Shown here: positions 5,713-50,596 of the stretch, in pieces
Layout of the letters: each line of letters opens with the position of its first letter
Numbering within the stretch: the first letter of the stretch is position 1
Sequence record: OR767160
Direction: 5' to 3' (one strand)
Length of the DNA: 50,596 nucleotides
Source: Escherichia phage vB-EcoS-XT34
Notes under the pieces: model-generated
Told to the model about the DNA's origin: nothing
Seen by the model: the letters and a program-made list of their open reading frames with translations, nothing else
Databases searched by the model: none
Made by a program: the position numbers and the translations under genes

Positions 5713-5713
5713 A

Positions 5714-15070: not shown

Positions 15071-15087
15071 TAGCTGAACCACAATAT

Positions 15088-15110
15088 GGAGCCGAAAGGC
15101 TCCTTTTTTA
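15088..15110 (+). terminator. rho-independent terminator
   Basis: ggagcc-gaaa-ggctcc then TTTTTT; the same 16-nt hairpin recurs at 45887. Confidence 0.7.
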
Positions 15111-15148: not shown

Positions 15149-15176
15149 TTGACCGTTTAACAAAAAATGCTATTAT
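15149..15176 (+). promoter_or_regulatory. candidate strong promoter for the major capsid gene (TTGACC-16-TGcTATTAT)
   Basis: -35 TTGACC at 15149-15154, extended -10 TGcTATTAT ending at 15176. Confidence 0.5.
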
Positions 15177-15223
15177 AGACTAGTGAACTTAATCACGTCT
15201 TTCTAAACCAAAAGGAACAAATT

Positions 15224-22566: not shown

Positions 22567-22616
22567 TAAATGGCCCTAGACGTGTTCAAGTGGTGCGTAC
22601 AGGTTCAGGATGGTGG

Positions 22617-22715
22617 NNNNNNNNNNNNNNNNNNNNNNNNNNNNNNNNNNNNNNNNNNNNNNNNNNNNNNNNNNNNNNNNNNNNNNNNNNNNNNNNNNNN
22701 NNNNNNNNNNNNNNN
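22617..22715. other. run of 99 N flanked by an exact 128-bp direct duplication (assembly join)
   Basis: 22489-22616 is identical to 22716-22843. Confidence 0.9.
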
Positions 22716-22796
22716 TTCAAGCAAATGATTCAGGAATCATGTTCCCAGGGTGGCGAAGTTTACAATTACATCAACGGAAAAGCAGGAGCGTAATAA

Positions 22797-23144
22797 ATGG
22801 CCCTAGACGTGTTCAAGTGGTGCGTACAGGTTCAGGATGGTGGCGGTGTAATGACCGTCACTAATAATGACAGGCAGGTGCAGTTTGGCAATGGATTCCG
22901 CCAGGTTGCATCGTCTGGCTATAACACTGAGCGACGAGAGTACGCAATCAGTTACGTTGGCAAGGACTGGAAAGAAGTGCGCGAGTTTTTGCGATCGCAT
23001 AGACTGAAAGCCTTTGCCTTTACCCCACCGGAGGACAAGATCGGCGTCTTCCTATTGAAGCCGGACACGCTGAATACTCAGCCAATCGGTCGTGGTCTTC
23101 TTGTTGTAAAATGCACCATTGTAGAAGCCTTCACAGCGGTGTAG
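22797..23144 (+). CDS. minor tail protein (lambda M-like)
   Basis: 115-aa ORF immediately after the tape measure gene; a duplicate start at 22570 lies in the pre-gap copy. Confidence 0.55.
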   Translation: MALDVFKWCVQVQDGGGVMTVTNNDRQVQFGNGFRQVASSGYNTERREYAISYVGKDWKEVREFLRSHRLKAFAFTPPEDKIGVFLLKPDTLNTQPIGRGLLVVKCTIVEAFTAV

Positions 23145-29258: not shown

Positions 29259-30203
29259 TTAATACATATCTGGGAGGTAAGGTAGTGGCGTTGATATTGT
29301 TACGTCAGGTCTGTTTCCGATCTCATATCTTACAATCCTCGATCCAGTTCCTGAGCGAACATAACCATTGCTCATCACGACTCCCTTGTTCCTTAACTCC
29401 TTGTAAGCCCGTATTGCTCTTGTGTTAAATCCACACCTGAGTATTGGGAAGTAAGATTCACCAATGTATTGATTGCTACCTGATAGGTTTATGAATCCAG
29501 AAACAACCAATGGCCTCGTAACGGTTGATAATGTGCAAACACCATTTGAGTTAAATATGTTCAGTCCAGGACCAGGGGTTGGAGCGACCATCTGGAAGAT
29601 AATCAAATCCATAGTGACACTTCCTGGTGTATCACCAGTATCTTCAGTGTTTATGTTTGTACATATCAGCTGGTTACTACCATTGTATTCAACTGATACA
29701 CCTGAGTTATTCCACTTTCCAAATGGTATCCCATAAATTGGAAGGGTGTATGTATTGGTGAAAGATATCCTCTGAGCAAACTTGCATACCAATAGCCTAT
29801 CAGTAGTGGTTATCGAAGTAAAATCAGTACTATTCGCAACATAAATACCCTGTCCCGTAGATGCTCTTAGTACCTCAATAACAGTACCAGAAAATTGAGT
29901 TATACGGTCAGAATATCCATTCTCATATCCAATCGATATTGTTCCGCTTGATGCTGTTGACGAGAATCCATTTATGTAATAAATCTCAACCCCTCTATCA
30001 AGTTCGAATGAGTATGCACCATTGTTAGGGATTAGGAACCTTGAAGCTCCTTCATTACCCTGAATTGAAAAATTTTTGCTAAATCCACCACTGGATACGT
30101 TGAAATTTCCAGCGAAATTCAATGCCCGCATCCCTGCGGTTATTGTCATTGGCTTTCTTCCGTCATTGAGGTCTATATAAATACCTTGAGCCATTAATTC
30201 CAC
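29259..30203 (-). CDS. candidate receptor-binding or tail-tip accessory protein
   Basis: 314-aa Gly/Ser/Thr/Asn-rich ORF co-transcribed downstream of a lipoprotein gene and convergent with the J-like gene. Confidence 0.4.
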
Positions 30204-30424
30204 TCCTTAGAACCATAATCACGAACAGAGCCACTGGAACCTTTAATACCATCGTAGCGAATGTCAATTTCACCAGCCGCAACAACTACGCCATCTTTCC
30301 ATTTAGATACGCACACGCCGCTTGAGGACGTTGCACACCACCCATCAGGGCGAGGGCCAGAAGAACAACCAACTGTCATGATCAATGCTGCTGCGATGAT
30401 TGCCGATTTGATTAAGTTAGTCAT
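30194..30424 (-). CDS. small lipoprotein, candidate superinfection-exclusion protein (Cor/Llp-like)
   Basis: 76 aa, signal peptide with lipobox LIMTVGC-S, driven by a box-type element. Confidence 0.55.
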
Positions 30425-30464: not shown

Positions 30465-30508
30465 ACTATACATGCAACTATCGTCGGAGTCTTTAACTAT
30501 TCGTGCTA
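30465..30508 (-). promoter_or_regulatory. box element variant (TAGCACGAATAGTTAAA) plus TATAGT and TTCATCGAAACGA leader, leftward
   Basis: read on the minus strand upstream of the lipoprotein gene; spacing and leader match the + strand boxes. Confidence 0.45.
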
Positions 30509-30585
30509 TTGTATACACGTAACCAATGTAACTCGATGTATACAATCCCATCCGCGAGAAATGATATACGCACTGTTACGCCAAT

Positions 30586-30670
30586 TTACGCAATGGTTAC
30601 ATTAAAATATCTATATATATCAACCTTTTACTCTTATTATTATTATTATATATATTAATGTGTATATCAT
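30586..30670 (+). repeat. AT-rich element shared with 251-350
   Basis: 26-nt core TTACGCAATGGTTACATTAAAATATC, one mismatch to the copy at 251-276, followed by TATATAT and (TTA)n tracts. Confidence 0.7.
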
Positions 30671-30880
30671 GTAACTACTTCTATAGAGTGTTCCGCTTAT
30701 AAATTTCTAATATGTACATTTATACAGTATTTAATCACAAGCATACCAATGCACCCTCCGCCAGAAGCGATATACACTATATACACGCTATTTACATCTA
30801 GCTATAGCTGGGCAGGATAGCCATTTTATGTAACTAGCTCCAATGTATACACATGATTACAGATACATGCACGTAACCTA

Positions 30881-30908: not shown

Positions 30909-30941
30909 TACCAGCATCAACAACGAACGAGGATTAAATAG

Positions 30942-31982
30942 ATGACCAAGCCACCGTTTCAATACTTCACGTCAGAAGAAATGAGCAACGACTTTTACCA
31001 CAGCAAAGATGAGTGGACATCAGAGTATGTATCAGGCTCATCACTCAGTAAGATCCATAGCACTTGTCCGGCAGCCTGGAAGTTTGAAATGAACTCGACG
31101 ACTAAGGCACTGGTCTTCGGTACGCAGTCGCATACCAACTTTGAGAGCAAAGCACTGTTTGAGCGTCAGTATCGCCGCGCACCGAAAGAAAGCGAGATTG
31201 AAAACGTGATCACTAGTCAGGCAGCATTGGCAACGAAATTAAAATCATTTGGCCTGACTGGTACAAGCGGTAAGCAATATCCAGAACTGATCAAGATGAT
31301 GGTTGATTGCGGCGAAGACCTCAACGTCATGTGGCTGATTGATATGATCGCACAATGTCAGGCGTGGGCCGATGGCGTGGAACTGGTTAAGGCGGAAGAC
31401 TACGACGCTTGCGTAAGTATGCGCCAAGTTCTTGAAATGATTCCTGAACATAACTCTTGCATGAACAGCGAGACGGCATTCCGTGAGTATTCTTTGTTCG
31501 GCGTAATCTGTGGCGTTAAAGTCAAGGTGCGACTTGACCATGTTGACATCATTAATGATCCAGAAGCCATCCGGCGCATGGGTTACGATCCTGAGATTCA
31601 CCCTGAAATCGTCGTCATCACTGATTACAAAACGACAATGAGCGCCAACCCGACCGAGTTCCCGCGCATGGCGTTCAACCTTGGATATTACCTCAAGATG
31701 GCATTGCAGCGTGACCTGTTCGTTAAATGCTTTGAGGAAACGCGACCTGTGGTTGTGCGCTTGCTGGCCCAGGAGAAGAAAGAACCTTACTTGCCTATGG
31801 CGTACCGCATGAGTAGCGATCAGCTTAAGATTGGTCGTGCGCAGTACATGAGCGTTATTCATACTTTCTCAATGTGCGAAGCGAATGACGTATGGCCTTC
31901 ATACAGCAACGGCGAACCAGAGATTGAGCTTGAGACTCCTGACTGGATTATGAAACAGTTCAAGCACATTCTGGAATCGTAG
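30942..31982 (+). CDS. recombination exonuclease (PD-(D/E)XK, RecB/lambda Exo-like)
   Basis: 346 aa, ITDYKTT motif; adjacent to Erf and SSB genes. Confidence 0.55.
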   Translation: MTKPPFQYFTSEEMSNDFYHSKDEWTSEYVSGSSLSKIHSTCPAAWKFEMNSTTKALVFGTQSHTNFESKALFERQYRRAPKESEIENVITSQAALATKLKSFGLTGTSGKQYPELIKMMVDCGEDLNVMWLIDMIAQCQAWADGVELVKAEDYDACVSMRQVLEMIPEHNSCMNSETAFREYSLFGVICGVKVKVRLDHVDIINDPEAIRRMGYDPEIHPEIVVITDYKTTMSANPTEFPRMAFNLGYYLKMALQRDLFVKCFEETRPVVVRLLAQEKKEPYLPMAYRMSSDQLKIGRAQYMSVIHTFSMCEANDVWPSYSNGEPEIELETPDWIMKQFKHILES

Positions 31983-32021
31983 CACTTTTTGCTAAACACG
32001 AACGCGGTGATTTGCTATAAT
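31980..32021 (+). promoter_or_regulatory. box element (TAGCAC-TTT-TTGCTAAA) plus TGcTATAAT
   Basis: box overlapping the exonuclease stop, 21 nt to an extended -10-like hexamer. Confidence 0.5.
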
Positions 32022-32058
32022 CACCGTAAATCAAACAAAGTAAACAAAGGTATATATA

Positions 32059-33234: not shown

Positions 33235-35517
33235 TTAACCAATAACTGACATTCTTGAGTTGGCAAATGTATAAGCATCAGTTTTGTTAGGGAACTGAGC
33301 CAGGAAGTAATCACTAATCCTTACAACACCACCATTAGTTGACTGGAAACGAAGCCTTGCCGTTCCTGAAATAGATGCCTGGCCAACTCCATATGTATGA
33401 ATCCAGTTACCATTAGGCTTGGTATAAATCTCTCCAATAAGGATTGAATCAGCAACTGCAGCTGAAACATCCCCACTAACAACTTTAAGACTACAACCCC
33501 ATACAACCTGGTAATACTGAGCAATGTTGGCAGTTGGAACATCTAAATACAGAGTGTATCCTGCAGGAATCGATAGCTGAGCGCAGCTGTCACTAAGAAC
33601 GCCATCAGCAACAGCTGTTGCATCAACAGTTCCCGTGCCCAAAAATCGCCACGGACCAGCGTCAGAGAACGTCTTGGCATGTAAAACGCCGCCAACAGAT
33701 GACCTTCTAATCCTGCCCTTAATATCTGTAGCTCTTACACTTGCGCTCAATCCTTGACTTAGTGGGAATGAGTTATCAGCTATAGACTCAACAAGTATGT
33801 CACCACCTACGTAACCGCCGATTATCAAATCTCTGGCTATTAACCTGCTACCAGCGTCAATACTAATATCGTAAACACCTGATGCATTATCAATTCGACA
33901 GTTTTTAGTTAGAAGGGTTGAGCCTTTTAACTCAATGTTGTTTAAGTAGCAATTTTCAGCAACAACCATTGGCATATTCTCTAATTTTAGCTGTCTTGGT
34001 TTCTGCGATACGCCATCAACAATAACAGCCTGTTCAGTCGCAACTCCCTCAAGCCATACGTTTGAAATTGTTGGAGTAACAGTGGGTGTAACACCATTAC
34101 CTTTAAAGTAAATCCCACCGCCAGGGCAAGCCTCAAATGTACAATCCCTTATAGATACCCCATCAACCCCACTACCCTGCAAAGACCCACCAAGTGTTGA
34201 GCCATCAATGTAAATACCGTAAGTGTGAATGCCAGCAAAGTGGCAGTCCCTCCATGTATCACTACCAGTGTGCATTGCAACGTCCGATCTTGCTATGTGT
34301 CCATAGTTACACTCAAGGTAACTACAATGTTGGTAAGTGTTACCAATGTTTCCCTTTGGTTTCCTTAAGCCTATATCAAGGCTATCGAACGCAATATGAT
34401 CAAAGTTCCATCTGCCATCAGTATTAGACTGACCGAAAGTTATGCCGATGCCATCCCTTGTACCAATCTCACCTTGAATAAGGAAGTTTGAGGCGTGACG
34501 ATACTGCCACAACCTTGATGACTCAGTAAGAGTAAAGCTTGCCTGGTTGGGTCCTGGGTTGAACCTTGCTCCGTAACCTACACCAATGAGGTTAGCACTC
34601 CCAGAATAATACTCACCAGTGTAAATACCACTGGTGATAAGCATGTCGTTACGCTCTTCAGTTGAGTTTATCGCAGTCTGAAAGTCGGCGTAGTTACCAG
34701 ACCTGTTAATATCATTAATGTTCTGAGTTAGAGTCCTCTCACCAATCCTTACATTGTCACCACCAGATGAAGATAAAAGCTGATCCCTTAATGAGTTATC
34801 GCCAACGGCAACCCATGCGCCTGGAGCTACACCACCAGTTGATTCTGGAGTTGAATTTTCTGGTATTGTCTTTGGTAATGGGCCATTCCACAAATAAGAT
34901 GAAACATCATTACCATTAAAATAAAAAACCTGCTGAGTTTTTGATTCAATTGTCCCGCCACCATCAAATGATAACACAAGAGCGCCAGAAACTGAGTTTG
35001 CAGCGTTCTGAGCTACTCCGGCAAAATAAGAAGAACTATTTGCCTGCTCTGTAGCTATATCTTTATCAGATGAAACCTGGATGGCATCAGCAGCAACCTG
35101 CGCAGCATCAGTGACAACTTGCTGATACTGAGTGTTTACCTGATTTACTTCTTCCTTGAACTTAACACCATCAAACTGATTGAATGCATCAACTGCCTCA
35201 GCAACCTCAGTTTCACGAGATTGGTAGTAACGCAATGTTTCAGCCACATCCTGAGCCAACCCCTGGACGGTAATACCATCGTGAGCAAGAATTGAGTATT
35301 GAGTTCCGGTTGGTGCGGTAAATCCTTTGTCGTTAAAAACTCGAATTTCTGTATCGCTGATAATTTCAGCAATCGTAACAATGCTTGCTGGCGTGGTATT
35401 GAAAATCATTGTTGCTCCAACGCGAATTAGCGTTAGTGGTTGACGCCAGGTAGTCCCAACGCCGTTAACTGTACCATCTGCCGCTAAAGAGGCAGTTCCT
35501 GCATCATAAATAGCCAT
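33235..35517 (-). CDS. tail fiber / tailspike with probable beta-helix domain (candidate depolymerase)
   Basis: 760 aa, Gly/Ser/Thr/Asn-rich repetitive composition with interspersed Cys motifs such as CTFEACPGGGIYFKGNG. Confidence 0.55.
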   Translation of the reverse strand: MAIYDAGTASLAADGTVNGVGTTWRQPLTLIRVGATMIFNTTPASIVTIAEIISDTEIRVFNDKGFTAPTGTQYSILAHDGITVQGLAQDVAETLRYYQSRETEVAEAVDAFNQFDGVKFKEEVNQVNTQYQQVVTDAAQVAADAIQVSSDKDIATEQANSSSYFAGVAQNAANSVSGALVLSFDGGGTIESKTQQVFYFNGNDVSSYLWNGPLPKTIPENSTPESTGGVAPGAWVAVGDNSLRDQLLSSSGGDNVRIGERTLTQNINDINRSGNYADFQTAINSTEERNDMLITSGIYTGEYYSGSANLIGVGYGARFNPGPNQASFTLTESSRLWQYRHASNFLIQGEIGTRDGIGITFGQSNTDGRWNFDHIAFDSLDIGLRKPKGNIGNTYQHCSYLECNYGHIARSDVAMHTGSDTWRDCHFAGIHTYGIYIDGSTLGGSLQGSGVDGVSIRDCTFEACPGGGIYFKGNGVTPTVTPTISNVWLEGVATEQAVIVDGVSQKPRQLKLENMPMVVAENCYLNNIELKGSTLLTKNCRIDNASGVYDISIDAGSRLIARDLIIGGYVGGDILVESIADNSFPLSQGLSASVRATDIKGRIRRSSVGGVLHAKTFSDAGPWRFLGTGTVDATAVADGVLSDSCAQLSIPAGYTLYLDVPTANIAQYYQVVWGCSLKVVSGDVSAAVADSILIGEIYTKPNGNWIHTYGVGQASISGTARLRFQSTNGGVVRISDYFLAQFPNKTDAYTFANSRMSVIG

Positions 35518-35542
35518 AATTGTAAATCCTTAATTTAGTTAA

Positions 35543-35557
35543 TAGCACGATTTGCTA
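35543..35557 (+). promoter_or_regulatory. orphan box element (TAGCACGATTTGCTA) between tailspike and primase genes
   Basis: palindromic box with no correctly spaced -10 in either orientation. Confidence 0.35.
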
Positions 35558-35583
35558 ATCGCAGTATACCATCTTTCAGGAAT

Positions 35584-35606
35584 AAAAAAACCCGCCGAAG
35601 CGGGTA
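35584..35606 (-). terminator. rho-independent terminator (leftward) after primase
   Basis: minus-strand cccgc-ttcg-gcggg followed by TTTTTTT. Confidence 0.6.
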
Positions 35607-36562: not shown

Positions 36563-36600
36563 CCAATAAAAAAGGTTGCACCAATTATGGCACAACCTTG
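36563..36600 (-). terminator. candidate terminator (leftward)
   Basis: minus-strand aaggttg..caacctt stem with large loop followed by TTTTTTT. Confidence 0.4.
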
Positions 36601-36604: not shown

Positions 36605-37078
36605 TTATTCTTTAGCTTTCCGTGCTGCTTCGTTTGCTGCTTTAATTTTTCGCCATGATCGACATTCAGGCTTAGTGGCTAACTCAGCCTCAGTTACTAC
36701 GCGCAGCATGTGACGCTTTTTGCAACGCAGCGTCAGCGGCTTACCGTTCCCATCGAATTGCAGATCCGGTCGGCAGAATGTAGCGCGGAAGCCTTCGCCA
36801 GTTCGCTTATATCGGTTGTGCGCCAGTTGAGCACCGCGCGCCGACATCATGCCGCGTTTAAACCACTCTTCGACCGCCTGGCGAGTAACTTTTAATTGCT
36901 TCGCCATGTTCGCCTTGCTGCCGTAGAACTCAAATACAATATCAAGTCGCGCCCTTAATCCGGCCTTTACTTCATCCTTGAGAACATAGTAACCTGACGG
37001 TCGCTTACGCTGCTTCTTATCTTCCGTGCGGATAGTTCCGTTGTTACCGTTAAGAGTACGCTTATCAGTTGCATTCAT
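36605..37078 (-). CDS. helix-turn-helix DNA-binding protein (candidate transcriptional regulator)
   Basis: 157-aa basic protein with HTH-like segment MAKQLKVTRQAVEEWFKRG; a box element lies in its own upstream region. Confidence 0.5.
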   Translation of the reverse strand: MNATDKRTLNGNNGTIRTEDKKQRKRPSGYYVLKDEVKAGLRARLDIVFEFYGSKANMAKQLKVTRQAVEEWFKRGMMSARGAQLAHNRYKRTGEGFRATFCRPDLQFDGNGKPLTLRCKKRHMLRVVTEAELATKPECRSWRKIKAANEAARKAKE

Positions 37079-37091
37079 TTTATCACCTCAA

Positions 37092-37133
37092 TAGCATTTT
37101 TTGTTAAAAGTCATTACGATTTGATGGTAGTAT
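37092..37133 (+). promoter_or_regulatory. box element variant (TAGCA-TTTTT-TGTTAAAA) plus TGgTAGTAT, in a divergent region
   Basis: 21 nt to a -10-like TAGTAT upstream of the helicase gene; the same palindrome is 11-25 nt upstream of the divergent HTH gene start. Confidence 0.45.
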
Positions 37134-37179
37134 TGTACCAAATTAAACGCTACAAGACAATTTTTATAGGAATTTAGAT

Positions 37180-39174
37180 ATGTTGCCTATCGAGAAGCTA
37201 GTTGCAAACTTCGATAAAGAAAGAATTAAACAGATTCAGAAGGATTACCAGTTTGGAGAGATAACCCCTTACGAATTCCAGTGTGTTACATTTGATGCAA
37301 TCGGAAAGGCCATTGGGAAGTATGAAAGCCCATTCATAGCAGACCTGTCGGTTTCTGCTGGTAAAACTATCATTCTCGCCATGATCGGTAAGAGAATGGA
37401 ACAGTTAGGGCTTCCTTATATGGTGCTATCTCGCCAGTCTGAGATTGTGAGCCAGGACAGCGAAGAGCTTCGCAATTTTGGCATTCGTAATAGCGTCTAT
37501 TGCGCTGGCCTTAACGTTAAATCAGTTTATTACCCAACCATAGTTGCTAGCGAAGGAACTGCGGCTAACGGCTTATTTAAGGGGCTTGGTGACTATGTTC
37601 CTGCCGTTATAGCTATAGATGAGTGCCATATGGTCGATCACATGGATATCGTTGAAGCCGAGGAGAACGAAGAAACATTTGAGCAAATGAGCACAAAGAA
37701 AGGCGAGATGGTTTTTAAGGATGGCGTAAACACAGGATTGCTTGGCACTGGTCGTGCGCAGTACACGCTAATCATTACTGAAATGAAACGACGTTGTCGT
37801 GAGAAGTATGGTCGCGAGCTTCGTATCTTTGGGCTAACTGGCAGCCCGTATCGCAACAATGATCACATAGTGGTTAGCAATCCAAATATCCGTGGATTCT
37901 GGCGCAAAACAGTGATCCAGGTCCCAACCAATTACCTTGTTGATTTGGGATTCGTTGTTCCAACTGTTTACGGAGAGGTTGGTGATTTGGGTTACGACCT
38001 TGCGGAGTTTGCTCCGGATGGCAGCGATGGTGTGAAAGACTTCAGCAAGAAAGAGATGGATGCAATGGCTGCAAAGATTCACGAAAACCAATCAATGACT
38101 CAAAAGATTATGGGTTTTCTTGTAAAAATTCTAGAGACTCGTAACGCCGCATTGGTCACCTGCGCCGGAAAACTCCATTGTGATGAGGCCGCTGCGGCAT
38201 TGCCGGATGGATACCCTTACGCCATTATCACCGATTCTACCGGAGAGAGGAAGCGCAGAGAGATTCTTGCAGATTGCCAGACTGGAAAGTACAAGATTAT
38301 CTTTCAGATTGGATGTCTAACCACGGGCGTAAACCAACCGCTGTGGGATACTAGCGTCATACTACGCAAGATTGGCAGTCTAACCTTAATGATTCAGCTT
38401 CTTGGTCGTGGCATGCGAAAACTAAAAAAGGCGCACATAGATGCTGGGTTCAAGAAGGAGGACCACTTGGTATTAGACTTTGCCGGAGCGCTTGATGACA
38501 TGGCAGAGCTTTACTTTGACCCAATAATTGAGGAGATTCAGGCTGAGAAGTTTAAATCCTCAAGAAAAGGTGGTGATGAGGCTCGCCAGTGTCCGAAATG
38601 TGGATATGAGAATTCGCCATTTGCTAGACGCTGTAGCAATAAGATTAATGGCGTTAGATGCGATCACTTTTTCCAGTTCACAACATGTGATGATATTACC
38701 GACCAACAAACAAAGGCGGTAATCAAGAAAGGTTGTGGAACTAAAAATGACATAGCAGCAAAAGTTTGTCGCGAATGCGGGGAAATGCTTAAAGACCCAA
38801 ACGCTAACCTGACTGGAAAGATGTATCGTCGCGGAGACTATTTGCGTGTTTATGACTTCCAGGTTGGATTGAGCAAAAATCAAACTGGCATTGTAGTTAA
38901 GTACAATATCATGGCCCACAACGGAGAAAGATTTAACGCTTGGGAGTTCTTTAATCCAGAATCTGACCATCGAGTTTGTAGTGTGCTATGGAAAAACTTT
39001 TGCCTTTCTCATATTGAGAATCGCACAGAGGCAGCACGAATTGGCAAACTTCGTAACGCAAAAATGATTATGATGAACGCAGATAAATTCCGAGCTCCTG
39101 TGCAGGTGACGCATCGTCGAAATGCAAAAGGTAAGGATATAATTGCCGTGAAAAATTTTGGAGAGTTAAAATGA
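37180..39174 (+). CDS. superfamily 2 DNA helicase
   Basis: 664 aa, Walker A SAGKT, DECH box (IAIDECHMV), C-terminal Cys cluster. Confidence 0.75.
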   Translation: MLPIEKLVANFDKERIKQIQKDYQFGEITPYEFQCVTFDAIGKAIGKYESPFIADLSVSAGKTIILAMIGKRMEQLGLPYMVLSRQSEIVSQDSEELRNFGIRNSVYCAGLNVKSVYYPTIVASEGTAANGLFKGLGDYVPAVIAIDECHMVDHMDIVEAEENEETFEQMSTKKGEMVFKDGVNTGLLGTGRAQYTLIITEMKRRCREKYGRELRIFGLTGSPYRNNDHIVVSNPNIRGFWRKTVIQVPTNYLVDLGFVVPTVYGEVGDLGYDLAEFAPDGSDGVKDFSKKEMDAMAAKIHENQSMTQKIMGFLVKILETRNAALVTCAGKLHCDEAAAALPDGYPYAIITDSTGERKRREILADCQTGKYKIIFQIGCLTTGVNQPLWDTSVILRKIGSLTLMIQLLGRGMRKLKKAHIDAGFKKEDHLVLDFAGALDDMAELYFDPIIEEIQAEKFKSSRKGGDEARQCPKCGYENSPFARRCSNKINGVRCDHFFQFTTCDDITDQQTKAVIKKGCGTKNDIAAKVCRECGEMLKDPNANLTGKMYRRGDYLRVYDFQVGLSKNQTGIVVKYNIMAHNGERFNAWEFFNPESDHRVCSVLWKNFCLSHIENRTEAARIGKLRNAKMIMMNADKFRAPVQVTHRRNAKGKDIIAVKNFGELK

Positions 39175-39653
39175 ATTGGAATGATGTTTTCGAGTACGTA
39201 GAAGGAAAGATTTTCTGGAAGGATAGTGGGAAAGGTAGGAAGTCTGGTGCTGAATTTGGTTGCATATGCAATACGTGGGGTTATGTTATTGGCACCCTTA
39301 GAGGAAGGACTGTTAGGGCCAATCGTTTAATATGGGAGATGCATAATGGGCCAATACCAAACGGAATGCAAATTGACCACATCAATCACATTAGGCATGA
39401 TAATAGAATTGAGAACTTGAGGCTTGTTAGTAATCAGGAAAACAGCAAAAACAACTCAATGCGAAAGAATAATACTTCTGGAGTTACAGGTGTTTGCTGG
39501 AATAAACAAAAAGGAAAGTGGATGGCTAAAATAAAAGTTGATTACAAAACCATAAATCTTGGTTTGTATTCAGACATTGAAAAGGCCGTGGAAGCAAGAA
39601 AGCAAGCTGAGGAATTATACGGTTTTCATGAAAATCACGGGGTTAATTTATGA
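39171..39653 (+). CDS. HNH homing endonuclease with AP2-like domain (copy 4)
   Basis: NRLIWEM..IDHINHIRHDNRIENLRLVS and EARKQAEELYGFHENHG. Confidence 0.75.
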   Translation: MNWNDVFEYVEGKIFWKDSGKGRKSGAEFGCICNTWGYVIGTLRGRTVRANRLIWEMHNGPIPNGMQIDHINHIRHDNRIENLRLVSNQENSKNNSMRKNNTSGVTGVCWNKQKGKWMAKIKVDYKTINLGLYSDIEKAVEARKQAEELYGFHENHGVNL

Positions 39654-40069
39654 AAATTACAGATAAAGTTGATTACATTGAGTTTTACCCGGGCCCGGTT
39701 AAGTCATGCCATAAAGAGGATGACGAACAAATCTTTTGCTCTGACTGGGTTAAGTACAACTACCCAGAGATGGTATTTTTCCACACCGTGAATGAGGGTA
39801 AGAAAACCATTGGACAAGCAAGAAAAGACCAGGCAAAGGGTTTGCTCAAGGGTGTGTCAGACTGTATTTTTTTGATACCTGAATCCGTGAGAGGGAGGCA
39901 TCCATTTGGCGCAATAGAGCTAAAGAGGGCTGGAAAAACACAAGCCAGTCCAGTCAGTGCCGAACAGAAGTCCTTCCTTAAAAGCGTAAGAGAATCAGGA
40001 GGTTTTGCGGCTGTGGCATACGGACGTGAAGGTTTTCTTGCGGCATTTAAAGAGATGATTTCAAAATAG
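39650..40069 (+). CDS. VRR-NUC domain nuclease
   Basis: 139 aa, PD-(D/E)XK-like core with D..ELK motif (DCIFLIP..GAIELKRAG). Confidence 0.6.
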   Translation: MKITDKVDYIEFYPGPVKSCHKEDDEQIFCSDWVKYNYPEMVFFHTVNEGKKTIGQARKDQAKGLLKGVSDCIFLIPESVRGRHPFGAIELKRAGKTQASPVSAEQKSFLKSVRESGGFAAVAYGREGFLAAFKEMISK

Positions 40070-40109
40070 CACGAATTGCTAAAGACGAATCTCAAGGATG
40101 AGATACTAT
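40067..40109 (+). promoter_or_regulatory. box element (TAGCACGAATTGCTAAA) plus -10-like TACTAT
   Basis: box overlapping the VRR-NUC stop, 22 nt to TACTAT, CA-rich leader. Confidence 0.45.
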
Positions 40110-40139: not shown

Positions 40140-40643
40140 ATGAAATGGAGAAATCGAATACAATATAAAGATGGTTCACTTTACTGGCTTGAGGCGAAAG
40201 ATAAAAGCAAATCATTCAATCATCGACTTTCTGGAAAGAAAATAGGAACGGTTATGAAGGATGGTTACATGAGATTCAGGTTTAATGATAAAGCATACTC
40301 ATGCAGCAGGGTGACGTGGGAGTACTTTAATGGAGAAATTCCTATCGGAATGGAGATTGATCATATAAACCATATAAGAGATGATAACAGAATTGAAAAT
40401 TTAAGATTGGTATCAAGATCTGATAATCAAAAAAATCTAAGTATATCAAAAAACAACAAATCAGGAGTAACTGGCGTCACATACCATAAACCTTCTGGTT
40501 TATGGTCCGCCAGAATAAACTCTGGAGGAAGAAGGTTTGAGCTTGGCTACTACAAAACCATAGAAGAAGCAAGGTTGGCAAGAATTGATGCTCAAAATGA
40601 ATTTGGTTTTCATGATAATCATGGAAAGAAAATAAAAAATTAA
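40140..40643 (+). CDS. HNH homing endonuclease with AP2-like domain (copy 5)
   Basis: SRVTWEY..IDHINHIRDDNRIENLRLVS and EARLARIDAQNEFGFHDNHG. Confidence 0.75.
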   Translation: MKWRNRIQYKDGSLYWLEAKDKSKSFNHRLSGKKIGTVMKDGYMRFRFNDKAYSCSRVTWEYFNGEIPIGMEIDHINHIRDDNRIENLRLVSRSDNQKNLSISKNNKSGVTGVTYHKPSGLWSARINSGGRRFELGYYKTIEEARLARIDAQNEFGFHDNHGKKIKN

Positions 40644-41388: not shown

Positions 41389-41619
41389 ATGAATAAGAAA
41401 GTTAATTTAAATGAAGATGGTCAGTTCCTTTTATTCCGTGCACTTGTTTGCCAAAATCTCTCAGATCTTGGGTTTAAGGGTGACGCCTGGGTATTCTCTG
41501 AATCACTTGATATGTCATTTGATTGCATAAAGGATGAGGAATATCGCTACTGGAAAGACTTAATAAAAAATGATGCCTCTGACTATAAGCGAGATTGCCC
41601 AGAAGATTTCGCAGAATAG
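41389..41619 (+). CDS. hypothetical protein
   Basis: 76 aa from the internal ATG with RBS; stop TAG begins a box element. Confidence 0.4.
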   Translation: MNKKVNLNEDGQFLLFRALVCQNLSDLGFKGDAWVFSESLDMSFDCIKDEEYRYWKDLIKNDASDYKRDCPEDFAE

Positions 41620-41659
41620 CACGAATTGCTAAACATACCCGCCACCGCGCGGGTATACT
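41617..41659 (+). promoter_or_regulatory. box element (TAGCACGAATTGCTAAA) plus -10-like TATACT
   Basis: spacer of 22 nt containing GC hairpin cccgc-caccgc-gcggg. Confidence 0.5.
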
Positions 41660-42557: not shown

Positions 42558-42656
42558 NNNNNNNNNNNNNNNNNNNNNNNNNNNNNNNNNNNNNNNNNNN
42601 NNNNNNNNNNNNNNNNNNNNNNNNNNNNNNNNNNNNNNNNNNNNNNNNNNNNNNNN
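42558..42656. other. run of 99 N flanked by an exact 128-bp direct duplication (assembly join)
   Basis: 42430-42557 is identical to 42657-42784. Confidence 0.9.
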
Positions 42657-42713: not shown

Positions 42714-43856
42714 ATGGCTATTCAGAAGATTAGTGACGAACAATTCATTGCTGAGCGCGAAGCTGGTAAAACACTCCGCCAGATTGCCCAGGAATACGGG
42801 ATGAACATTCGAACTGTTGAGCAGCGCTCAAGCCGCCTGGCAAAGCGCGGTGAGTTCCACGGGAATAAACACGTAAGCGTACACGTGCCAGAGGGCTTTC
42901 AGGTTAAAGGCACGTCAACCATGATTCGCGCTGACGGTTCCGAGGTCGTGCGCTGGGTTAAGACCGATCAGGACAAGGAGAAATTAGCCGCCATGATGGA
43001 TGCTGCTATTGAAGCATTCTGTGACGAACTCCCGCGCGCAGCTCCTCAGCCTATTCTTGGCGAGCCTCACTATGATGAGAATCTCCTGGCCCTGTATCCA
43101 GTTTTCGATCTCCACATCGGAGCAATGGCCCACAAGCATGAATGCGGCGAGAATTACAGCACCGACATCTCTGAGAAAGTTCTCAAGAACTTCTTTGATT
43201 ACTCGGTTGGTGTATCTCCTAAAGCAAAGAAAGCCGTATTGCTAATCGGCGGTGACTTCCTTCACTCAGACGGCCTGGACGCTGTAACGCCTGCAAGCGG
43301 TCACGTACTGGATCAGGATAGTCGATACGCCAAGCTAGTTCACGTTGCAATCCGTTCCGTACGCCGCGCGGTGGCGCTAATGCTGGATAAGCACGAAGAG
43401 GTCGAAATCCAGATCATTGAAGGTAACCATGACCAGGCTGGCATGATTTGGTTGCGTGCAGCAATGGCGGCATACTTTGAAGATGAGGCGCGCGTAACGG
43501 TTGATACGTCTCCTATGATTCTTCACCGTACAAAGTGGGGCAAAACATTGCTTGGATACACTCATGGTCACACCATGAAGAAAGCTGATACTCGACTGGC
43601 GGCAATGGCGACTGACTTCCGCGAAGAGTTCGGTACGAGCAAGTATATTTACACGCATAGTGGCCATTGGCACCATCAGACGATCACGGAAGGAACTTTG
43701 GGGATTGATGAGGTTCACGGTCAGCTTGGCGCGAAAGATGCATATGCGGCGCGCGGCGGTTGGCGCTCATATCGCCAGGCGGCGGTAATTGTCTACTCCA
43801 AGGAGTTCGGCGAAGTCGGTCGCTTCGTTTACCGTCCTGAAATGAGCGACATCTGA
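42714..43856 (+). CDS. HTH-containing calcineurin-like metallophosphoesterase
   Basis: N-terminal HTH-like LRQIAQEYGMNIRTVEQR; phosphoesterase motifs DLHIG, GGDFLHSD, GNHDQ; a duplicate start at 42487 lies in the pre-gap copy. Confidence 0.55.
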   Translation: MAIQKISDEQFIAEREAGKTLRQIAQEYGMNIRTVEQRSSRLAKRGEFHGNKHVSVHVPEGFQVKGTSTMIRADGSEVVRWVKTDQDKEKLAAMMDAAIEAFCDELPRAAPQPILGEPHYDENLLALYPVFDLHIGAMAHKHECGENYSTDISEKVLKNFFDYSVGVSPKAKKAVLLIGGDFLHSDGLDAVTPASGHVLDQDSRYAKLVHVAIRSVRRAVALMLDKHEEVEIQIIEGNHDQAGMIWLRAAMAAYFEDEARVTVDTSPMILHRTKWGKTLLGYTHGHTMKKADTRLAAMATDFREEFGTSKYIYTHSGHWHHQTITEGTLGIDEVHGQLGAKDAYAARGGWRSYRQAAVIVYSKEFGEVGRFVYRPEMSDI

Positions 43857-43900
43857 TAGCACGAATTGCCTAACACTATAGCGCCGGAAGGCGCTATATT
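43857..43900 (+). promoter_or_regulatory. box element variant (TAGCACGAATTGCCTAA) plus -10-like TATATT
   Basis: TGA-TAG double stop; spacing about 23 nt. Confidence 0.4.
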
Positions 43901-44448: not shown

Positions 44449-44949
44449 ATGAAGCAGAAGCTTGTAATTAGTGCGGCGACGGCTGCAGCAATATACATTG
44501 CAGCACCGATCATTGAGCTTGTAGAAGGCGTGGAGAACAAGCCATACATGGACATTGCTGGAGTGCCTACGGTCTGCGCTGGAGTTACTGGCTCCGATGT
44601 GATATGGGGCAAGAGCTACAGTAACAGGGAGTGCCGGAACTTGCTGGAGAAGCACATTCAGATTCATGGCAAGCATGTGCAGAATGCAGTCACCTACCCT
44701 ATATCCCCAAAGACAAGGGCGGCGCTAATCAGTTTTAGCTACAACGTTGGCGGATACGCCATGAGGAAGTCTACATCTGTAAGGCTAATTAACCAGGGTA
44801 AGGTTGAGCAGGGTTGTAAGGCTCTAGGTATGTGGACAAAAGCAAGAGTAAATGGGAGGCTTGTTACAGTAAAGGGTTTAGTAAACCGAAGGAATGAAGA
44901 GATTAAGCTATGCATTGAGGGTGAGATGGAAATGAAAAGGGGCAATTAA
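44449..44949 (+). CDS. endolysin, lysozyme-like with N-terminal signal-anchor-release (SAR)-type domain
   Basis: 166 aa; weakly hydrophobic Ala/Gly-rich N-terminus followed by E..D..T catalytic spacing (IELVEGVENKPYMDIAGVPTVC). Confidence 0.7.
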   Translation: MKQKLVISAATAAAIYIAAPIIELVEGVENKPYMDIAGVPTVCAGVTGSDVIWGKSYSNRECRNLLEKHIQIHGKHVQNAVTYPISPKTRAALISFSYNVGGYAMRKSTSVRLINQGKVEQGCKALGMWTKARVNGRLVTVKGLVNRRNEEIKLCIEGEMEMKRGN

Positions 44950-45476
44950 GCCCCGTGATTTTCGTGAAAGCCTAGCTCCATCTCTGCGGCTTTTCTAGCT
45001 AAGACTGCATCATCGAATGAGTCTCCGTAGTAAAGCCGCTTATTCTTGCCATTAATTTTTATCTGAGAGAACCATTTACCCCTTGCTGAGTCCCAGCACA
45101 CACCAACGACTCCGGATGTATTTAAAGAAGACATTGGCATGTTCATTTCCTGATCAGACCTTGATGCCAGTCTTAGGTTTTCAATTCTATTATCATCCTT
45201 AATGTGGTTTATATGATCGATCTCTATACCATCAGGTATCTGGCCTTTGTGCATTTCCCATATAATCCTATGCACCTTCCTGTACCTGTTGTTAAATCTA
45301 ACCAATAGGTATCCATGTTTATCTGGAGTTCCAACCATTTTTCCGGCATTTCTTGAGTTGTACTGATTGCTCATGTCATCACGACGCTTCCTCCATAAAT
45401 TATTTCCGTCATAATGAAAGTATTTTGACCAGTTCATGTATACTATCCTCTCTAGTTTCATTTCATCAACAATCAT
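44946..45476 (-). CDS. HNH homing endonuclease with AP2-like domain (copy 6)
   Basis: HRIIWEM..IDHINHIKDDNRIENLRLAS and FDDAVLARKAAEMELGFHENHG; on the opposite strand, between endolysin and spanin genes. Confidence 0.75.
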   Translation of the reverse strand: MIVDEMKLERIVYMNWSKYFHYDGNNLWRKRRDDMSNQYNSRNAGKMVGTPDKHGYLLVRFNNRYRKVHRIIWEMHKGQIPDGIEIDHINHIKDDNRIENLRLASRSDQEMNMPMSSLNTSGVVGVCWDSARGKWFSQIKINGKNKRLYYGDSFDDAVLARKAAEMELGFHENHGA

Positions 45477-45493: not shown

Positions 45494-45883
45494 ATGTTTT
45501 TGCAAAAAATGCTATTATGCTCTGTAATTCTGCTTTCAGGTTGTTCGGCGACATCTGCGCTGACTGGTTTAATTGGCAGCAAGCCAGAAATCAGTGCGCA
45601 GGCTGGGGCTGAGAACGTGAAGCAAACGGTAGGTGTTACAGGAAAGGTGGATAAGTCAAACGACAACGACACCACTATCAAAGATTCAAAGGTAGGAAAG
45701 GTTGATACGTCAAACGGGAAATCTGTCAGCACATCAAGCATCAAGGCTGACACTATCGTTGCTGATAAGATTGAAATAAGGAATGATGAAGGAGGTGGAA
45801 GGATTGCGTTTGGACTTGCTTTAATTCTAATTAGCCTATTGCTTTTCTCATTTACAATATGGACTACTTTTCGCAAAAAATAA
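45494..45883 (+). CDS. unimolecular spanin (u-spanin) candidate
   Basis: N-terminal lipoprotein signal with lipobox LLSGC-S and a single C-terminal transmembrane helix, as in the phage T1 u-spanin. Confidence 0.55.
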   Translation: MFLQKMLLCSVILLSGCSATSALTGLIGSKPEISAQAGAENVKQTVGVTGKVDKSNDNDTTIKDSKVGKVDTSNGKSVSTSSIKADTIVADKIEIRNDEGGGRIAFGLALILISLLLFSFTIWTTFRKK

Positions 45884-48469: not shown

Positions 48470-48512
48470 AATATACAGGAAAAGCCCCGAAGGGCTTTAG
48501 CAATTAGTGCTA
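48470..48512 (-). promoter_or_regulatory. box element (TAGCACTAATTGCTAAA) plus TATATT and CTCATCGAAACGA leader, leftward
   Basis: minus-strand box TAG is the stop codon of the methyltransferase-like gene; 22-nt spacer with hairpin agccc-ttcg-gggct. Confidence 0.5.
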
Positions 48513-49178
48513 TTTGTTGCTTTCATATAGTGCGCGAGCAAAACCTTCCGGTGTTAATGAGCGTAGCACCTTTGTCTTTGCAGACTTTCCGCCGCAGTAT
48601 TTCCAGGCCCAAAAGAATCCAATGCTCTCAACTGGTTTTTTAATCGGCTCAACAAATCCATTTCCACACCAAATACAAGTCTTTTTGTTGTAGGCATTGC
48701 GAGTGGGCATCCTTGGGTGATAAACCTCATCGTGATCAATGTAACCGCCATAATCGCAAGGGTGGAAATAGAAGTCCGGTTTACGCCATAGAGTTGACAG
48801 TTTGCCTACAGGATTCTCAACCATCCATGGGGCATTAAAGTGATTGCCGACTTCCTCGACGAGCTTCGCATTAGCCAGGGCATACGCCAGTTCATCCTCA
48901 CTGCGCTCATGCTGTGATCCAGACTGAGAGAACAGCGTGCAATCAGGGAATCCGATAACCATCTGCGCCGGAGGCAGGCCGAGCAATTCACACTTGGTGA
49001 TGAAATCCTTGTCAATCCACATGTTGACGTAGTGAATGTTCTCATGCTTCATCTTGATGTGATATTCGCCATGATTGCCGGAGTCCGCGTTGAAGCAGTA
49101 GACGGTGTGACCATCTTCCGCCCATGGGAGGCCAGCGATACCAGAACCGTCAAAAAGACAATAAATTACCTTTTTCAT
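48510..49178 (-). CDS. compact C5-cytosine methyltransferase-like protein
   Basis: 222 aa with motif I-like LFDGSGIAG, motif IV-like GFPDCTLFSQSG and ENV-like MVENPVG; too short for a canonical target-recognition domain. Confidence 0.5.
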   Translation of the reverse strand: MKKVIYCLFDGSGIAGLPWAEDGHTVYCFNADSGNHGEYHIKMKHENIHYVNMWIDKDFITKCELLGLPPAQMVIGFPDCTLFSQSGSQHERSEDELAYALANAKLVEEVGNHFNAPWMVENPVGKLSTLWRKPDFYFHPCDYGGYIDHDEVYHPRMPTRNAYNKKTCIWCGNGFVEPIKKPVESIGFFWAWKYCGGKSAKTKVLRSLTPEGFARALYESNK

Positions 49179-50024: not shown

Positions 50025-50061
50025 TTTTACTTCCTCTTTGTGTACTTCGTTTCGATGAAAT

Positions 50062-50104
50062 TATTATGCCTCAATCCGTGAGGCTTCGTTTAGCAATTCG
50101 TGCT
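50062..50104 (-). promoter_or_regulatory. box element (TAGCACGAATTGCTAAA) plus CATAAT and TTCATCGAAACGA leader, leftward
   Basis: minus-strand canonical box, hairpin gcctca-cgga-ttgaggc in the spacer; coordinates within about 2 nt. Confidence 0.5.
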
Positions 50105-50107
50105 ATT

Positions 50108-50531: not shown

Positions 50532-50576
50532 AATAATAGCGAATCACACCTGATCGGTCATTAGCAAAAAGTGCTA
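50532..50576 (-). promoter_or_regulatory. box element (TAGCAC-TTT-TTGCTAA) plus TATTAT and CTCATCGAAACGA leader, leftward
   Basis: minus-strand box near the right end of the window, same spacing and leader as the other leftward copies. Confidence 0.45.
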
Positions 50577-50596
50577 TTCGTTCGATTTATGGATTG

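Follow-up and report, generated by a model that had tools for sequence, protein, structure and literature searches.

The window analysed here, a 50,596-nt stretch of Escherichia phage vB-EcoS-XT34 (sequence record OR767160), is a Drexlerviridae (T1/Rtp-like) genome. As the preliminary description had it, a leftward gene for a 157-aa helix-turn-helix (HTH) protein diverges from a rightward helicase gene across a short region holding a near-palindromic element, and both genes were confirmed (ATG-start ORF at 36605–37078 on the minus strand; helicase ORF start at 37180 on the plus strand). The features of the locus, with the second HTH gene considered below, are as follows.

36572–36599, minus strand: intrinsic terminator directly past the pir stop codon (12-bp stem, then a T-run)
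36605–37078, minus strand: pir ortholog, encoding a 157-aa Cro-type HTH transcription regulator (phrog_2856; T1 Orf23/Pir family)
37084–37089, minus strand: Shine-Dalgarno sequence GAGGTG of pir, read off the sequence (complement)
37091–37110, plus strand: 20-nt marbox-like element ATAGCATTTTTTGTTAAAAG, at about −50 to −31, forward for the rightward promoter
37092–37106, plus strand: 15-nt box TAGCATTTTTTGTTA, an imperfect palindrome with a T-type spacer; all 68 distinct relatives carry a T-type box here
37125–37133, plus strand: extended −10 TGgTAGTAT of the helicase promoter (P_hel), predicted start near 37140 (CA)
37132–37160, minus strand: pir promoter TTGTCT-17-TGgTACAAT from a promoter scan, predicted start near 37125
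37180–39174, plus strand: helicase gene, T1 ST22 ortholog and first of the rightward operon (Helicase_C and zinc ribbons)
42714–43856, plus strand: DNA repair exonuclease with an N-terminal HTH (phrog_704; T1 ST16)

The 157-aa protein is the XT34 syntenic ortholog of T1 Pir. It matches T1 Orf23/Pir with 53% identity over 133 aa (BLASTP E-value, 4e-46) and phrog_2856, the PHROG family of T1 Pir as well, over its full length (E-value, 1.7e-82), and the locus is shared with T1, pir lying between the primase and the divergent helicase genes with a box in the intergenic region (68 intergenic regions aligned); in T1, the box is likewise located 14 nt 5' of the start codon. A CCTC/CCCC block at the pir Shine-Dalgarno sequence is kept across the aligned regions. 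Because the intrinsic terminator lies directly past its stop codon, pir is monocistronic, and the T1 annotation places a terminator at the equivalent position. T1 Orf23 was named Pir, for 'prophage induction regulator', by Laganenka et al. in 2019 (PMC6737242), although the lysogeny framing of that paper has been contested (PMC8262962). In GFP reporters, Pdam and Phol are activated by T1 Pir, and the recE promoter and that of pir itself are repressed; these data cover five promoters only, all from T1, with overexpressed protein, and no binding site for Pir was defined there (PMC6737242). By analogy with T1 Pir, a regulatory role may be carried over to the XT34 protein.

The Cro-type assignment of the protein was borne out by its predicted structure, an all-alpha Cro fold (AF2 model; pLDDT, 88). 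The Pfam matches, at residues 47–76, are weak and below the gathering threshold (YdaS, 22.0 versus 30 bits; P22_Cro, 20.8 versus 30.2 bits), precomputed PF15943/PF14549 matches are present on some Pir homologs, and NCBIfam gave nothing above its cut-off for either the 157-aa protein or the product of 42714–43856. In comparison with the all-alpha Cro proteins (Xfaso1, N15, and P22 Cro; PF14549), below whose curated cut-off and that of YdaS (PF15943) it scores, Pir adds a conserved, disordered, basic N-arm of 30 residues, an inserted helix (residues 80–93), and a C-terminal extension, and it comes from a virulent phage without a partner repressor gene. The best-conserved parts are the N-arm (DKRxxNGNNGTxRxxDKKxRKR) and residues 96–119. 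Conservation is lowest in helix 3, where the mean identity is 0.52 (entropy, 2.06 bits) as compared with 0.82 in the N-arm and C-core. The recognition-helix sequence is TRQAVEEW in XT34 Pir and SNQTVQGW in T1 Pir, and the C-terminal tails of the two also differ, that of XT34 having an extra lysine-rich helix at 142–156. The Pir proteins of the Vc1 and Motto clade are only 44–47% identical to that of XT34.

The box at 37092–37106 is indeed a near-palindrome (4 of 5 positions of its TAGCA and TGTTA halves are complementary), but it lies 14–28 nt 5' of the pir ATG (A at 37078) rather than 11–25 nt as first described. Its distance from the helicase −10 was confirmed: the TAGTAT hexamer at 37128–37133, preceded by TGg at 37125–37127, begins 21 nt past the 15-mer, corresponding to 17 nt past the 20-mer. 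The same 15 nt occupy −49 to −35 of P_hel and +20 to +34 of the pir transcript, and the −10 hexamers of pir (37132–37137) and helicase (37128–37133) overlap on opposite strands. The P_hel box is T-type in 68 of 68 relatives, and the overlapping −10, with an equivalent pir promoter scoring at least 9/12, recurs in 66 of 68 distinct intergenic sequences. The pir promoter is one of few canonical σ70 promoters. The pir unit would consist of this near-consensus σ70 promoter, a 47-nt leader, the ORF, and the intrinsic terminator, and the 'palindrome' may be regarded as an upstream element of the rightward helicase promoter rather than a private pir operator. Since the −10 hexamers of the two promoters overlap, occupancy of the box should switch the helicase on and pir down; with the box located in the pir leader and the overlap on opposite strands, pir should be shut down when the box is occupied and polymerase is at P_hel. 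Thus, the pir and helicase promoters should form a conserved, mutually exclusive pair that pivots on one box.

The box is not confined to this locus. The exact 15-mer is found twice in the XT34 window, sites within 3 mismatches of it 13 times (2.5 expected), and TAGCA-N5-TGCTA at up to 1 mismatch 17 times (1.8 expected), a count reached in 0 of 100 shuffles; sites of the latter type number 21 in T1 (1.4 expected) and 7 in 33 kb of Klebsiella phage Sweeny (0.7 expected). A family logo was built from 335 unique boxes in 85 sequences (84 related loci and the XT34 window), and shows an asymmetric element of 19–20 nt, ATAGCACnnwTTGyTAAA, centred near −40.5. Two-fold symmetry is absent: the flanking A (position 0) and A, A (positions 16 and 17) are non-complementary, C at position 6 and T at position 10 break the symmetry, and G3 of the left half is conserved in 333 of 335 boxes, its partner C13 in 205 of 335. 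The orientation is fixed as well, with a −10 downstream in the forward direction at 283 of 335 sites and in reverse at 17 of 335. An identical box occurs in all clades examined, from the E. coli phages through the Vc1 and Motto clade. Among the matches listed, box arrays were found in Drexlerviridae alone, every one encoding Pir, and in an IMG/VR scan the multi-copy loci, again among the matches listed, were mostly on contigs of ~45–53 kb, a length compatible with Drexlerviridae genomes, single matches elsewhere occurring at about the chance rate; arrays in further phage families would have spoken for a host reader.

The box is the already-known 21-nt repeat of the Drexlerviridae, the direct repeat aaATAGCACnnnTTGnTAAAA of TLS, T1, Rtp, and Rogue1, whose function was left open with three options: stoperators, enhancer-binding sequences, or an UP enhancer element (PMC11447400). 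The XT34 boxes agree with aaATAGCACnnnTTGnTAAAA in sequence, in orientation along the direction of transcription, in intergenic placement, and in falling into A, T, and G spacer groups; the repeat is linked neither to Pir nor to the marbox in that paper. In XT34, the box heads ~15 transcription units in the order box, ~22 nt (21–23), and −10; besides P_hel, these are as follows.

1698–1715, plus strand: G-type box promoter, 22 nt, TATGAT
2455–2472, plus strand: G-type box promoter, 22 nt, TATAGT
4350–4367, plus strand: box promoter, 22 nt, TATAAT
5713–5730, plus strand: G-type box promoter, its spacer containing a terminator hairpin, 22 nt, TATAGT
6342–6359, plus strand: T-type box promoter, 22 nt, TATAGT
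31979–31996, plus strand: T-type box promoter, 21 nt, TATAAT, at the exonuclease VIII stop codon, before an Erf-like gene
40066–40083, plus strand: G-type box promoter, the TAG of the box being the stop codon of a VRR-NUC gene
41616–41633, plus strand: G-type box promoter, 22 nt, TATACT
43856–43873, plus strand: box promoter before a small ORF and lysis genes, 23 nt, TATATT
30492–30509, minus strand: box promoter, 23 nt, TATAGT
45498–45515, minus strand: T-type box promoter, 22 nt, TATGAT
48496–48513, minus strand: box promoter, 22 nt, TATATT
50089–50106, minus strand: G-type box promoter, 22 nt, CATAAT
50560–50577, minus strand: T-type box promoter, 23 nt, TATTAT, the first promoter at the right end

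Across the family, the spacing peaks with the −10 at 22 nt past the 15-mer, corresponding to 18 nt past the 20-mer, and a CA start is located at position +50 of the logo. The fixed 22-nt spacing and the CA start were worked out here, beyond what had been reported for the repeat (PMC11447400).

The extended element closely resembles the marbox, the published consensus of which is AYNGCACNNWNNRYYAAAYN (PMC2064960). XT34 contains 15 sites with up to 1 mismatch to this consensus as compared with 1.04 expected, 6 of them perfect; the copy at 37091–37110 has 2 mismatches (C7→T and Y19→A), and pir's own box in the XT34 clade reads GCAT for GCAC, weakening the marbox A-box. The marbox-degenerate positions (Y2, W10, and Y14) vary among the 335 boxes as the marbox code predicts. 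The phage box corresponds to the micF A-box (ACAGCAC) joined to the mar B-box (TTGCTAAAT), which served in the crystal structures of Rob and MarA (PMC8279559), and its conserved T12 is a position of base readout by MarA (PMC4655474). The chance of such a match, including the degenerate positions, is ~5e-7 per motif comparison by our own calculation. In a class II site, the marbox points forward and overlaps the −35, with its centre near −41 (PMC12052159, PMC6900184, PMC8811837), and the phage boxes show the same geometry: forward, overlapping −35, centred near −41, and ~18 nt from the −10. Several class II promoters of the E. coli mar/sox/rob regulon (micF, lpxC P2, lpxL P1, and rfaY P1) share with them the consensus and the degenerate positions, the orientation, the overlap with −35, and the centre at about −41, as well as an 18-nt distance from the 20-mer to the −10 and a −35 that is weak or missing; the phage box has the geometry of micF, the sequence of which was confirmed (100%) in E. 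coli genomes. The phage boxes differ from E. coli marboxes in being phage-borne, in number (~15–20 copies in 50 kb), in extra conservation at A3 and T11, and in lying much nearer to the consensus. No link of marboxes to phage promoters was found in the literature searched. A phage-encoded MarA-like protein was rejected, no MarA homolog being encoded in the window and 86 loci (tblastn with MarA).

Because the box is a class II marbox by sequence, orientation, and spacing, a host activator of the MarA/SoxS/Rob type (RamA in Klebsiella) is its most likely reader. We infer that such an activator, bound to the box, would recruit RNA polymerase to promoters with a good −10 and no −35, and that the two promoters at the pir locus compete: with the box occupied and polymerase at P_hel, pir would be turned off through occlusion or a roadblock, and likewise in reverse. 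Pir itself would repress box-less promoters of the σ70 type (its own and recE) and stimulate some others (dam and hol). Since the box resembles a MarA/SoxS/Rob site, Pir is more likely a modulator, possibly at T-type boxes like that of pir, than the factor that binds boxes in general. This whole explanation, a class II marbox-type element for a host activator, Pir as modulator, and competing pir and helicase promoters, is the one we tentatively favour, giving it somewhat less than an even chance. Extended to the family, it is possible, though doubtful, that in Drexlerviridae, as virulent enterobacterial phages, most early and middle units rely on idealised class II marbox promoters wired to host MarA/SoxS/Rob/RamA, that reverse boxes in a late σ70 promoter repress, and that Pir is a phage-encoded switch placed on top. 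Several observations weigh against the marbox reading: no family-wide regulator other than Pir has a dimeric DNA-binding fold of the classical kind; T1 Pir activates Pdam; the box at pir carries GCAT; the arrays are, among the matches listed, restricted to Drexlerviridae and always accompanied by Pir; and conservation in the fragment that showed autorepression by T1 Pir is limited to the box and the −10 pair. Without stress, cells contain little MarA or SoxS, and Rob is reportedly sequestered in inactive aggregates (PMC12052159), so that the dependence of ~15 promoters of a fast lytic phage on them would be awkward and would favour a phage-encoded reader. In addition, the labels of some relatives name Vibrio or Pseudomonas as the host, and a MarA-type reader in such hosts is an assumption if these labels are right.

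The preliminary description had proposed the 157-aa protein as the first candidate for a dimer that binds the palindrome and from there could control the helicase operon and its own gene. The dual control from one site agrees with the geometry kept in 66 of 68 relatives, and the protein is a genuine Cro-type regulator, its T1 ortholog both repressing its own promoter and activating the boxed Pdam (PMC6737242); its role as the dimeric reader of the box is not supported. On this proposal, Pir would read a TAGCA-N5-TGyTA core, at least in T-type boxes, and would be both a class II activator and its own repressor. Proteins that bind operators as dimers typically have a Cro-type fold like that of Pir, the half-sites are spaced by 10 bp with their centre near −42, as for lambda cI at PRM or the controller proteins of restriction-modification (R-M) systems, and a canonical σ70 promoter is what would be expected for a first-expressed activator. 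The host regulators are mostly unavailable without stress. T1 Pdam, a T-type box promoter without a −35, is activated, and Ppir, where only the box and the −10 pair are conserved, is repressed; T1 Porf65, whose perfect box is G-type, is Pir-independent, which is compatible with a specificity for the spacer type, P_hel being T-type in every relative. However, the box is asymmetric and locked in orientation, its degenerate positions track the marbox code, it is invariant while helix 3 is hypervariable, and the proximal half-site at pir's own box is mostly TGTTA. Moreover, in T1, the box-less Phol and PrecE respond to Pir whereas the boxed Porf65 does not, and Pdam is active in a cell lysate free of Pir (PMC6737242). 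We therefore consider Pir somewhat unlikely to be the dimeric reader. C proteins of R-M systems and lambda cI at PRM/PR, which are also small HTH dimers that activate and autoregulate at divergent or overlapping promoters, have true two-fold sites and conserved recognition helices, in contrast to the asymmetric site and variable helix of the pir locus.

Pir may instead act away from the box, as an early-to-middle switch through a putative contact with RNA polymerase or through non-conserved sites, in the manner of sigma appropriation, damping −35-dependent promoters (pir and recE) and favouring −35-independent ones. The repressed T1 promoters are a canonical pair (TTGAAT-17-TATAAT and TTGACT-16-TATAAT) and Pdam is boxed without a −35; the recE promoter of XT34 is canonical as in T1 (TTGACT-16-TATAGT), the box at 31979 being ruled out for this role because it lies where the exonuclease VIII gene ends, before the Erf-like gene. 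The strongest conservation in Pir, in the N-arm and residues 96–119 and not in the recognition helix, would also suit such a switch, but the fold is that of a standard DNA-binding Cro domain, the reporter data are confined to the five T1 promoters with overexpressed protein, and Pir-activated T1 Phol, unlike the −35-less Pdam, carries TTGTGT-17-TAAAAT; we regard the switch as improbable. A direct reading of the box by RNA polymerase, as an UP-like or displaced −35 element with no transcription factor, would explain why box promoters are active in uninfected cells and in lysate, and is suggested by TTGCTA with an A/T-rich spacer upstream of the −35 position and by the UP-element option already raised (PMC11447400). 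It seems very improbable, as TTGyTA is 22 nt from the −10, too distant for σ region 4, the invariant ATAGCAC is unlike the UP-element consensus, and the marbox match would have to be a coincidence of the order calculated above. Least probable of all, with hardly any weight, is the HTH of the phosphoesterase/exonuclease at 42714–43856, named earlier as the second candidate. This HTH is far better conserved than that of Pir (R, V, E, and R are invariant in NIRxVExR among 22 distinct sequences), shows weak similarity to HTH_23 and σ70 region 4, and belongs to a family-wide protein, but the protein is annotated and profiled as a Mre11/SbcD-type DNA repair exonuclease with one HTH, on a nuclease, and its gene lies mid-operon and is itself transcribed from box promoters; the better-conserved HTH is its only tie to the box.

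Two published loose ends meet at the pir locus, T1 Pir without an assigned binding site and a 21-nt repeat without an assigned reader, and the class II marbox-type promoter element offers a testable answer for the latter. Whichever protein reads the box, the answer would supply the promoter logic so far lacking for Drexlerviridae. If host MarA/SoxS/Rob read the boxes, transcription in a phage family of laboratory contaminants and therapy candidates would be tied to host regulators of stress and drug resistance, and infection by T1-like phages would respond directly to salicylate, bile salts, oxidative stress, and mar-type antibiotic-resistance mutations. If Pir reads them, it would be a Cro-type protein that has converged on a marbox-like site.

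Other candidates were examined and set aside. T1 Orf65, which in T1 activates its own box promoter and represses pir, has no Pfam domain and no homolog in XT34 (tblastn), where boxes are abundant. A σ54 promoter (TGGCAC-N5-TTGC) was rejected with a spacing 2 nt too short and AG in place of GG, and for CRP and FNR, inspection of the intergenic region by eye gave no convincing site. The XT34 window had no matches in scans with Rfam or for tRNAs, Pfam detected no DNA-binding domain in ten other early proteins, and the left-end repeats of the ATTGCAAT type are not enriched genome-wide. Inverted repeats around the −10 hexamers (T1, AACGTTTAC...GTAAACGTT; XT34, TTTGATGGTA...TACCAAA) were considered as a clade-specific Pir operator, but they are not conserved within clades; identical Pir HTH segments are found with unrelated spacers.

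The window represents all, or nearly all, of the genome of a siphovirus of the T1/Rtp-like group (Drexlerviridae), and its gene order is that of T1 and ESCO41; the 1 kb around the pir/helicase region shares 87% identity with Escherichia phage ESCO41, and 83-90% with P818, Rtp, DTL, and many others. The leftward 157-aa ORF was confirmed, its start being preceded by GAGGTG, and the product matched phrog_2856 ("transcriptional regulator"; E, 1.7e-82) and T1 ST23 (53% identity; E, 4e-46), whose gene likewise lies between those of the primase and the divergent helicase. The window gene adds one more member to a known family, Pir, the name given to T1 Orf23 by Laganenka et al. (PMC6737242). By tblastn, homologs with at least 45% identity are present in 824 phage records, the matches listed being T1-like genomes of ~45-52 kb; in a metagenome protein collection, those homologs that are on long contigs have contigs of comparable size. 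Pfam matches of the protein to YdaS and P22_Cro were under the cut-offs. Near-identical T1-like genomes have been deposited as Campylobacter or Pseudomonas phages (e.g., PsgS01F, 44,679 bp, the length of one E. coli phage); host labels in this family look unreliable, which limits host-range arguments.

Features of the pir/helicase region are as follows.
36599-36572, minus strand: strong terminator just past pir
36605-37078, minus strand: pir ORF
37092-37106, plus strand: box TAGCATTTTTTGTTA, an imperfect palindrome of 15 nt
37128-37133, plus strand: helicase -10 hexamer TAGTAT with TGn extension
37160-37132, minus strand: predicted pir promoter TTGTCT-17-TGgTACAAT, near-consensus
37180-39174, plus strand: helicase ORF

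A gap of 21 nt separates the box from TAGTAT, as previously described, and the box lies 14-28 nt upstream of the pir ATG, rather than 11-25 nt. Matches to TAGCA-N5-TGCTA with at most one mismatch are far above chance, numbering 17 in the window (1.8 expected), 21 in T1 (1.4 expected), and 7 in a 33-kb stretch of the Klebsiella Webervirus Sweeny (0.7 expected). The element has already been published as a 21-nt direct repeat, aaATAGCACnnnTTGnTAAAA, with 21 copies in TLS and others in T1, Rtp, and Rogue1; it points with transcription, falls into A, T, and G spacer groups, and has been proposed as a stoperator, an enhancer site, or an UP element (PMC11447400). In the window, each good copy has a -10-like hexamer downstream at constant spacing, with a conserved leader after it. 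The window and 84 related loci (85 sequences) together yielded 335 distinct boxes, ascertained with the palindromic pattern itself. The distance from the 15-mer to a TATAAT-like -10 is 22 nt in 181 of them, 21 nt in 36, and 23 nt in 18; such a -10 is found on the forward side of 283 boxes and the reverse side of 17. A conserved CA, 7 nt past the hexamer, is the likely start, placing the 15-mer at -49 to -35. The leader CA-TC(G/A)AAAC(G/A)A beginning there (logo positions 49-60) recurs at the box promoters as well as at the canonical recE promoter (e.g., 50030-50045, 6395-6410, and 30915-30930). Nearly all box promoters also contain an inverted repeat or full intrinsic terminator between box and start, often enclosing the -10, with terminator and promoter interleaved within ~50 nt (e.g., 41635-41656, 5733-5750, and 32005-32026).

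The palindrome of the preliminary description survives only as an imperfect one. In the 335 boxes, the unselected flanks are non-complementary, with A at position 0 in 305 and at positions 16 and 17 in 321 and 289, respectively; position 6 is C in 287, and its partner, position 10, is T in 320; the left-half G is present in 333, but the matching right-half position has C in only 205, and T in 122. The box with its flanks is asymmetric and orientation-locked, and reads A-T-A-G-C-A-C-n-n-w-T-T-G-y-T-A-A-A. By sequence and geometry, we read it as a putative marbox, the binding site of the host activators MarA, SoxS, and Rob (RamA in Klebsiella). The soxbox/marbox consensus AYNGCACNNWNNRYYAAAYN (PMC2064960) matches 15 sites in the window with at most one mismatch (1.04 expected), six of them perfectly, and its degenerate positions Y2, W10, and Y14 are exactly those varying in the phage logo. 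T12, an N in the consensus, is conserved in the phage boxes and is a base-readout position of MarA (PMC4655474). The box corresponds to the micF A-box (ACAGCAC...) joined to the mar B-box (...TTGCTAAAT), the DNAs with which Rob and MarA were crystallized (PMC8279559). Class II mar/sox/rob promoters have their marbox in the forward orientation, with a centre near -41 and overlap with the -35 (PMC12052159, PMC6900184, PMC8811837). The phage boxes are centred at -40.5. The E. coli micF promoter consists of a 20-mer, 18 nt, and TAGAAT, a sequence that is 100% identical in >4,700 E. coli genomes; the 15-mer plus 22 nt of the phages equals this geometry.

In the window, the -10 elements of pir and helicase overlap by 2 nt; the pir promoter is TTGAAT-17-TATAAT in T1 and TTGTCA-16-TATAAT in the Klebsiella clade, and there it lies 1 nt out of register with the helicase TATTAT. 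Of 68 distinct intergenic sequences, 66 have a promoter scoring 9/12 or better whose -10 overlaps. Conservation in the alignment of the 68 is confined to the pir Shine-Dalgarno sequence, a T-type box, and the -10 pair. Phages that share an identical Pir HTH segment have unrelated spacers in this region. The predicted pir transcript would start near 37125, with the box at +20 to +34. We infer that the two promoters cannot be occupied at the same time, and that a reader on the box recruiting polymerase rightward would lower pir transcription. The overlapping promoters, with the box in the pir leader, thus support as geometry the earlier idea that both genes are controlled at once. The box itself is a known repeat, and gene and box are real and linked functionally by architecture; new are its proposed identification as a marbox and the putative switch formed by the conserved overlapping promoters. 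The literature searched contained no link of marboxes to phage promoters or T1-like phages.

Weighing the arguments for and against Pir together, we rank a host reader of the MarA/SoxS/Rob type first, at slightly less than an even chance, and Pir second, as rather unlikely; the two are not mutually exclusive. Pir has a dimer-type fold, and plasmid-borne T1 Pir raises the hol and dam promoters, the latter a T-type box promoter, and lowers its own and that of recE (PMC6737242), reporter data that stand uncontested although the lysogeny claim of that study, which defined no binding site, is contested (PMC8262962). In the fragment showing autorepression, only the box and -10 pair are conserved, and the T-type spacer is constant at this box; furthermore, MarA and SoxS are scarce in unstressed cells, and Rob is reported to be sequestered (PMC12052159). 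However, T1 Pdam was assayed in Pir-free lysate, and the T1 orf65 promoter, with a perfect box and a -10 at 22 nt, was unresponsive, whereas Phol and PrecE respond (PMC6737242) and are box-less (TTGTGT-17-TAAAAT with only a relic ATAGCAT, and TTGACT-16-TATAAT, respectively). The asymmetry, orientation lock, and fit to a monomeric two-HTH site also argue against Pir as general reader. The box is the same in all clades examined, including Vibrio phage Vc1 and Pseudomonas phage Motto, whose Pir proteins are 44-47% identical to that of the window, while helix 3 (residues 66-75) is the least conserved segment of Pir (mean identity, 0.52; entropy, 2.06 bits). The 157-aa protein, formerly the first candidate, is a real HTH regulator but probably not the general box reader.

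The other candidate proposed, the N-terminal HTH of the exonuclease, is well conserved (NIRxVExR) and has no other support. T1 Orf65 was excluded for this phage because the window has no homolog, and Pfam detected no DNA-binding domain in ten further early proteins. Across 38 homologs, conservation of Pir is highest in a disordered N-terminal arm, DKRxxNGNNGTxRxxDKKxRKR (residues 5-31; 36987-37066); the arm and residues 96-119 have a mean identity of 0.82. That the arm exceeds the HTH in conservation suggests a conserved partner or contact besides helix 3.

At 15149-15205, a near-consensus rightward promoter, TTGACC-16-TATTAT, precedes the ORF starting at 15206, its spacer filled by a reverse T-type box (core 15158-15172, minus strand). 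T1 has the same layout (15063-15090; TTGACG-16-TATTAT) ahead of the major head protein gene. At E. coli pbpG, a marbox located in the spacer of the promoter acts repressively (PMC12052159); by analogy, the box reader may keep this late promoter off. Between the minus-strand tail fibre and primase genes, in 35542-35605, lies an orphan box in forward orientation. It lacks a -10 at the standard spacing, and a bidirectional terminator comes after it (35590-35605); a box is also present at the corresponding position of T1 (34903-34917). The orphan box could act as a roadblock or mark an antisense start. Upstream of recE, the exonuclease VIII gene, ~400 bp of AT-rich non-coding DNA (30510-30880) contain every genomic copy of TGTATACA (three) and of ATGTAACT (three), along with many inverted repeats; GTGTAACAG/TGTTACA is repeated in the equivalent place of T1 (29900-30330). 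This region may be an origin or operator cluster, and its relevance here comes from the repression of T1 PrecE by Pir.

Two runs of 99 N (22617-22715 and 42558-42656) are flanked by exact 128-nt duplications (22489-22616 equals 22716-22843, and likewise around 42558) and look like unmerged assembly joins, the second creating a false duplicate of the exonuclease gene start (42487 versus 42714). An ATTGCA/TGCAAT repeat cluster at the left end (1-100), with no enrichment of these repeats elsewhere in the window, could be a packaging or end-related signal. Four scattered HNH-type homing endonuclease paralogs (7165-7683, 39171-39653, 40140-40643, and 44946-45476 on the minus strand) share the motif IDHINHIR-DNRIENLRL, one of them lying between the VRR-NUC and dam genes.
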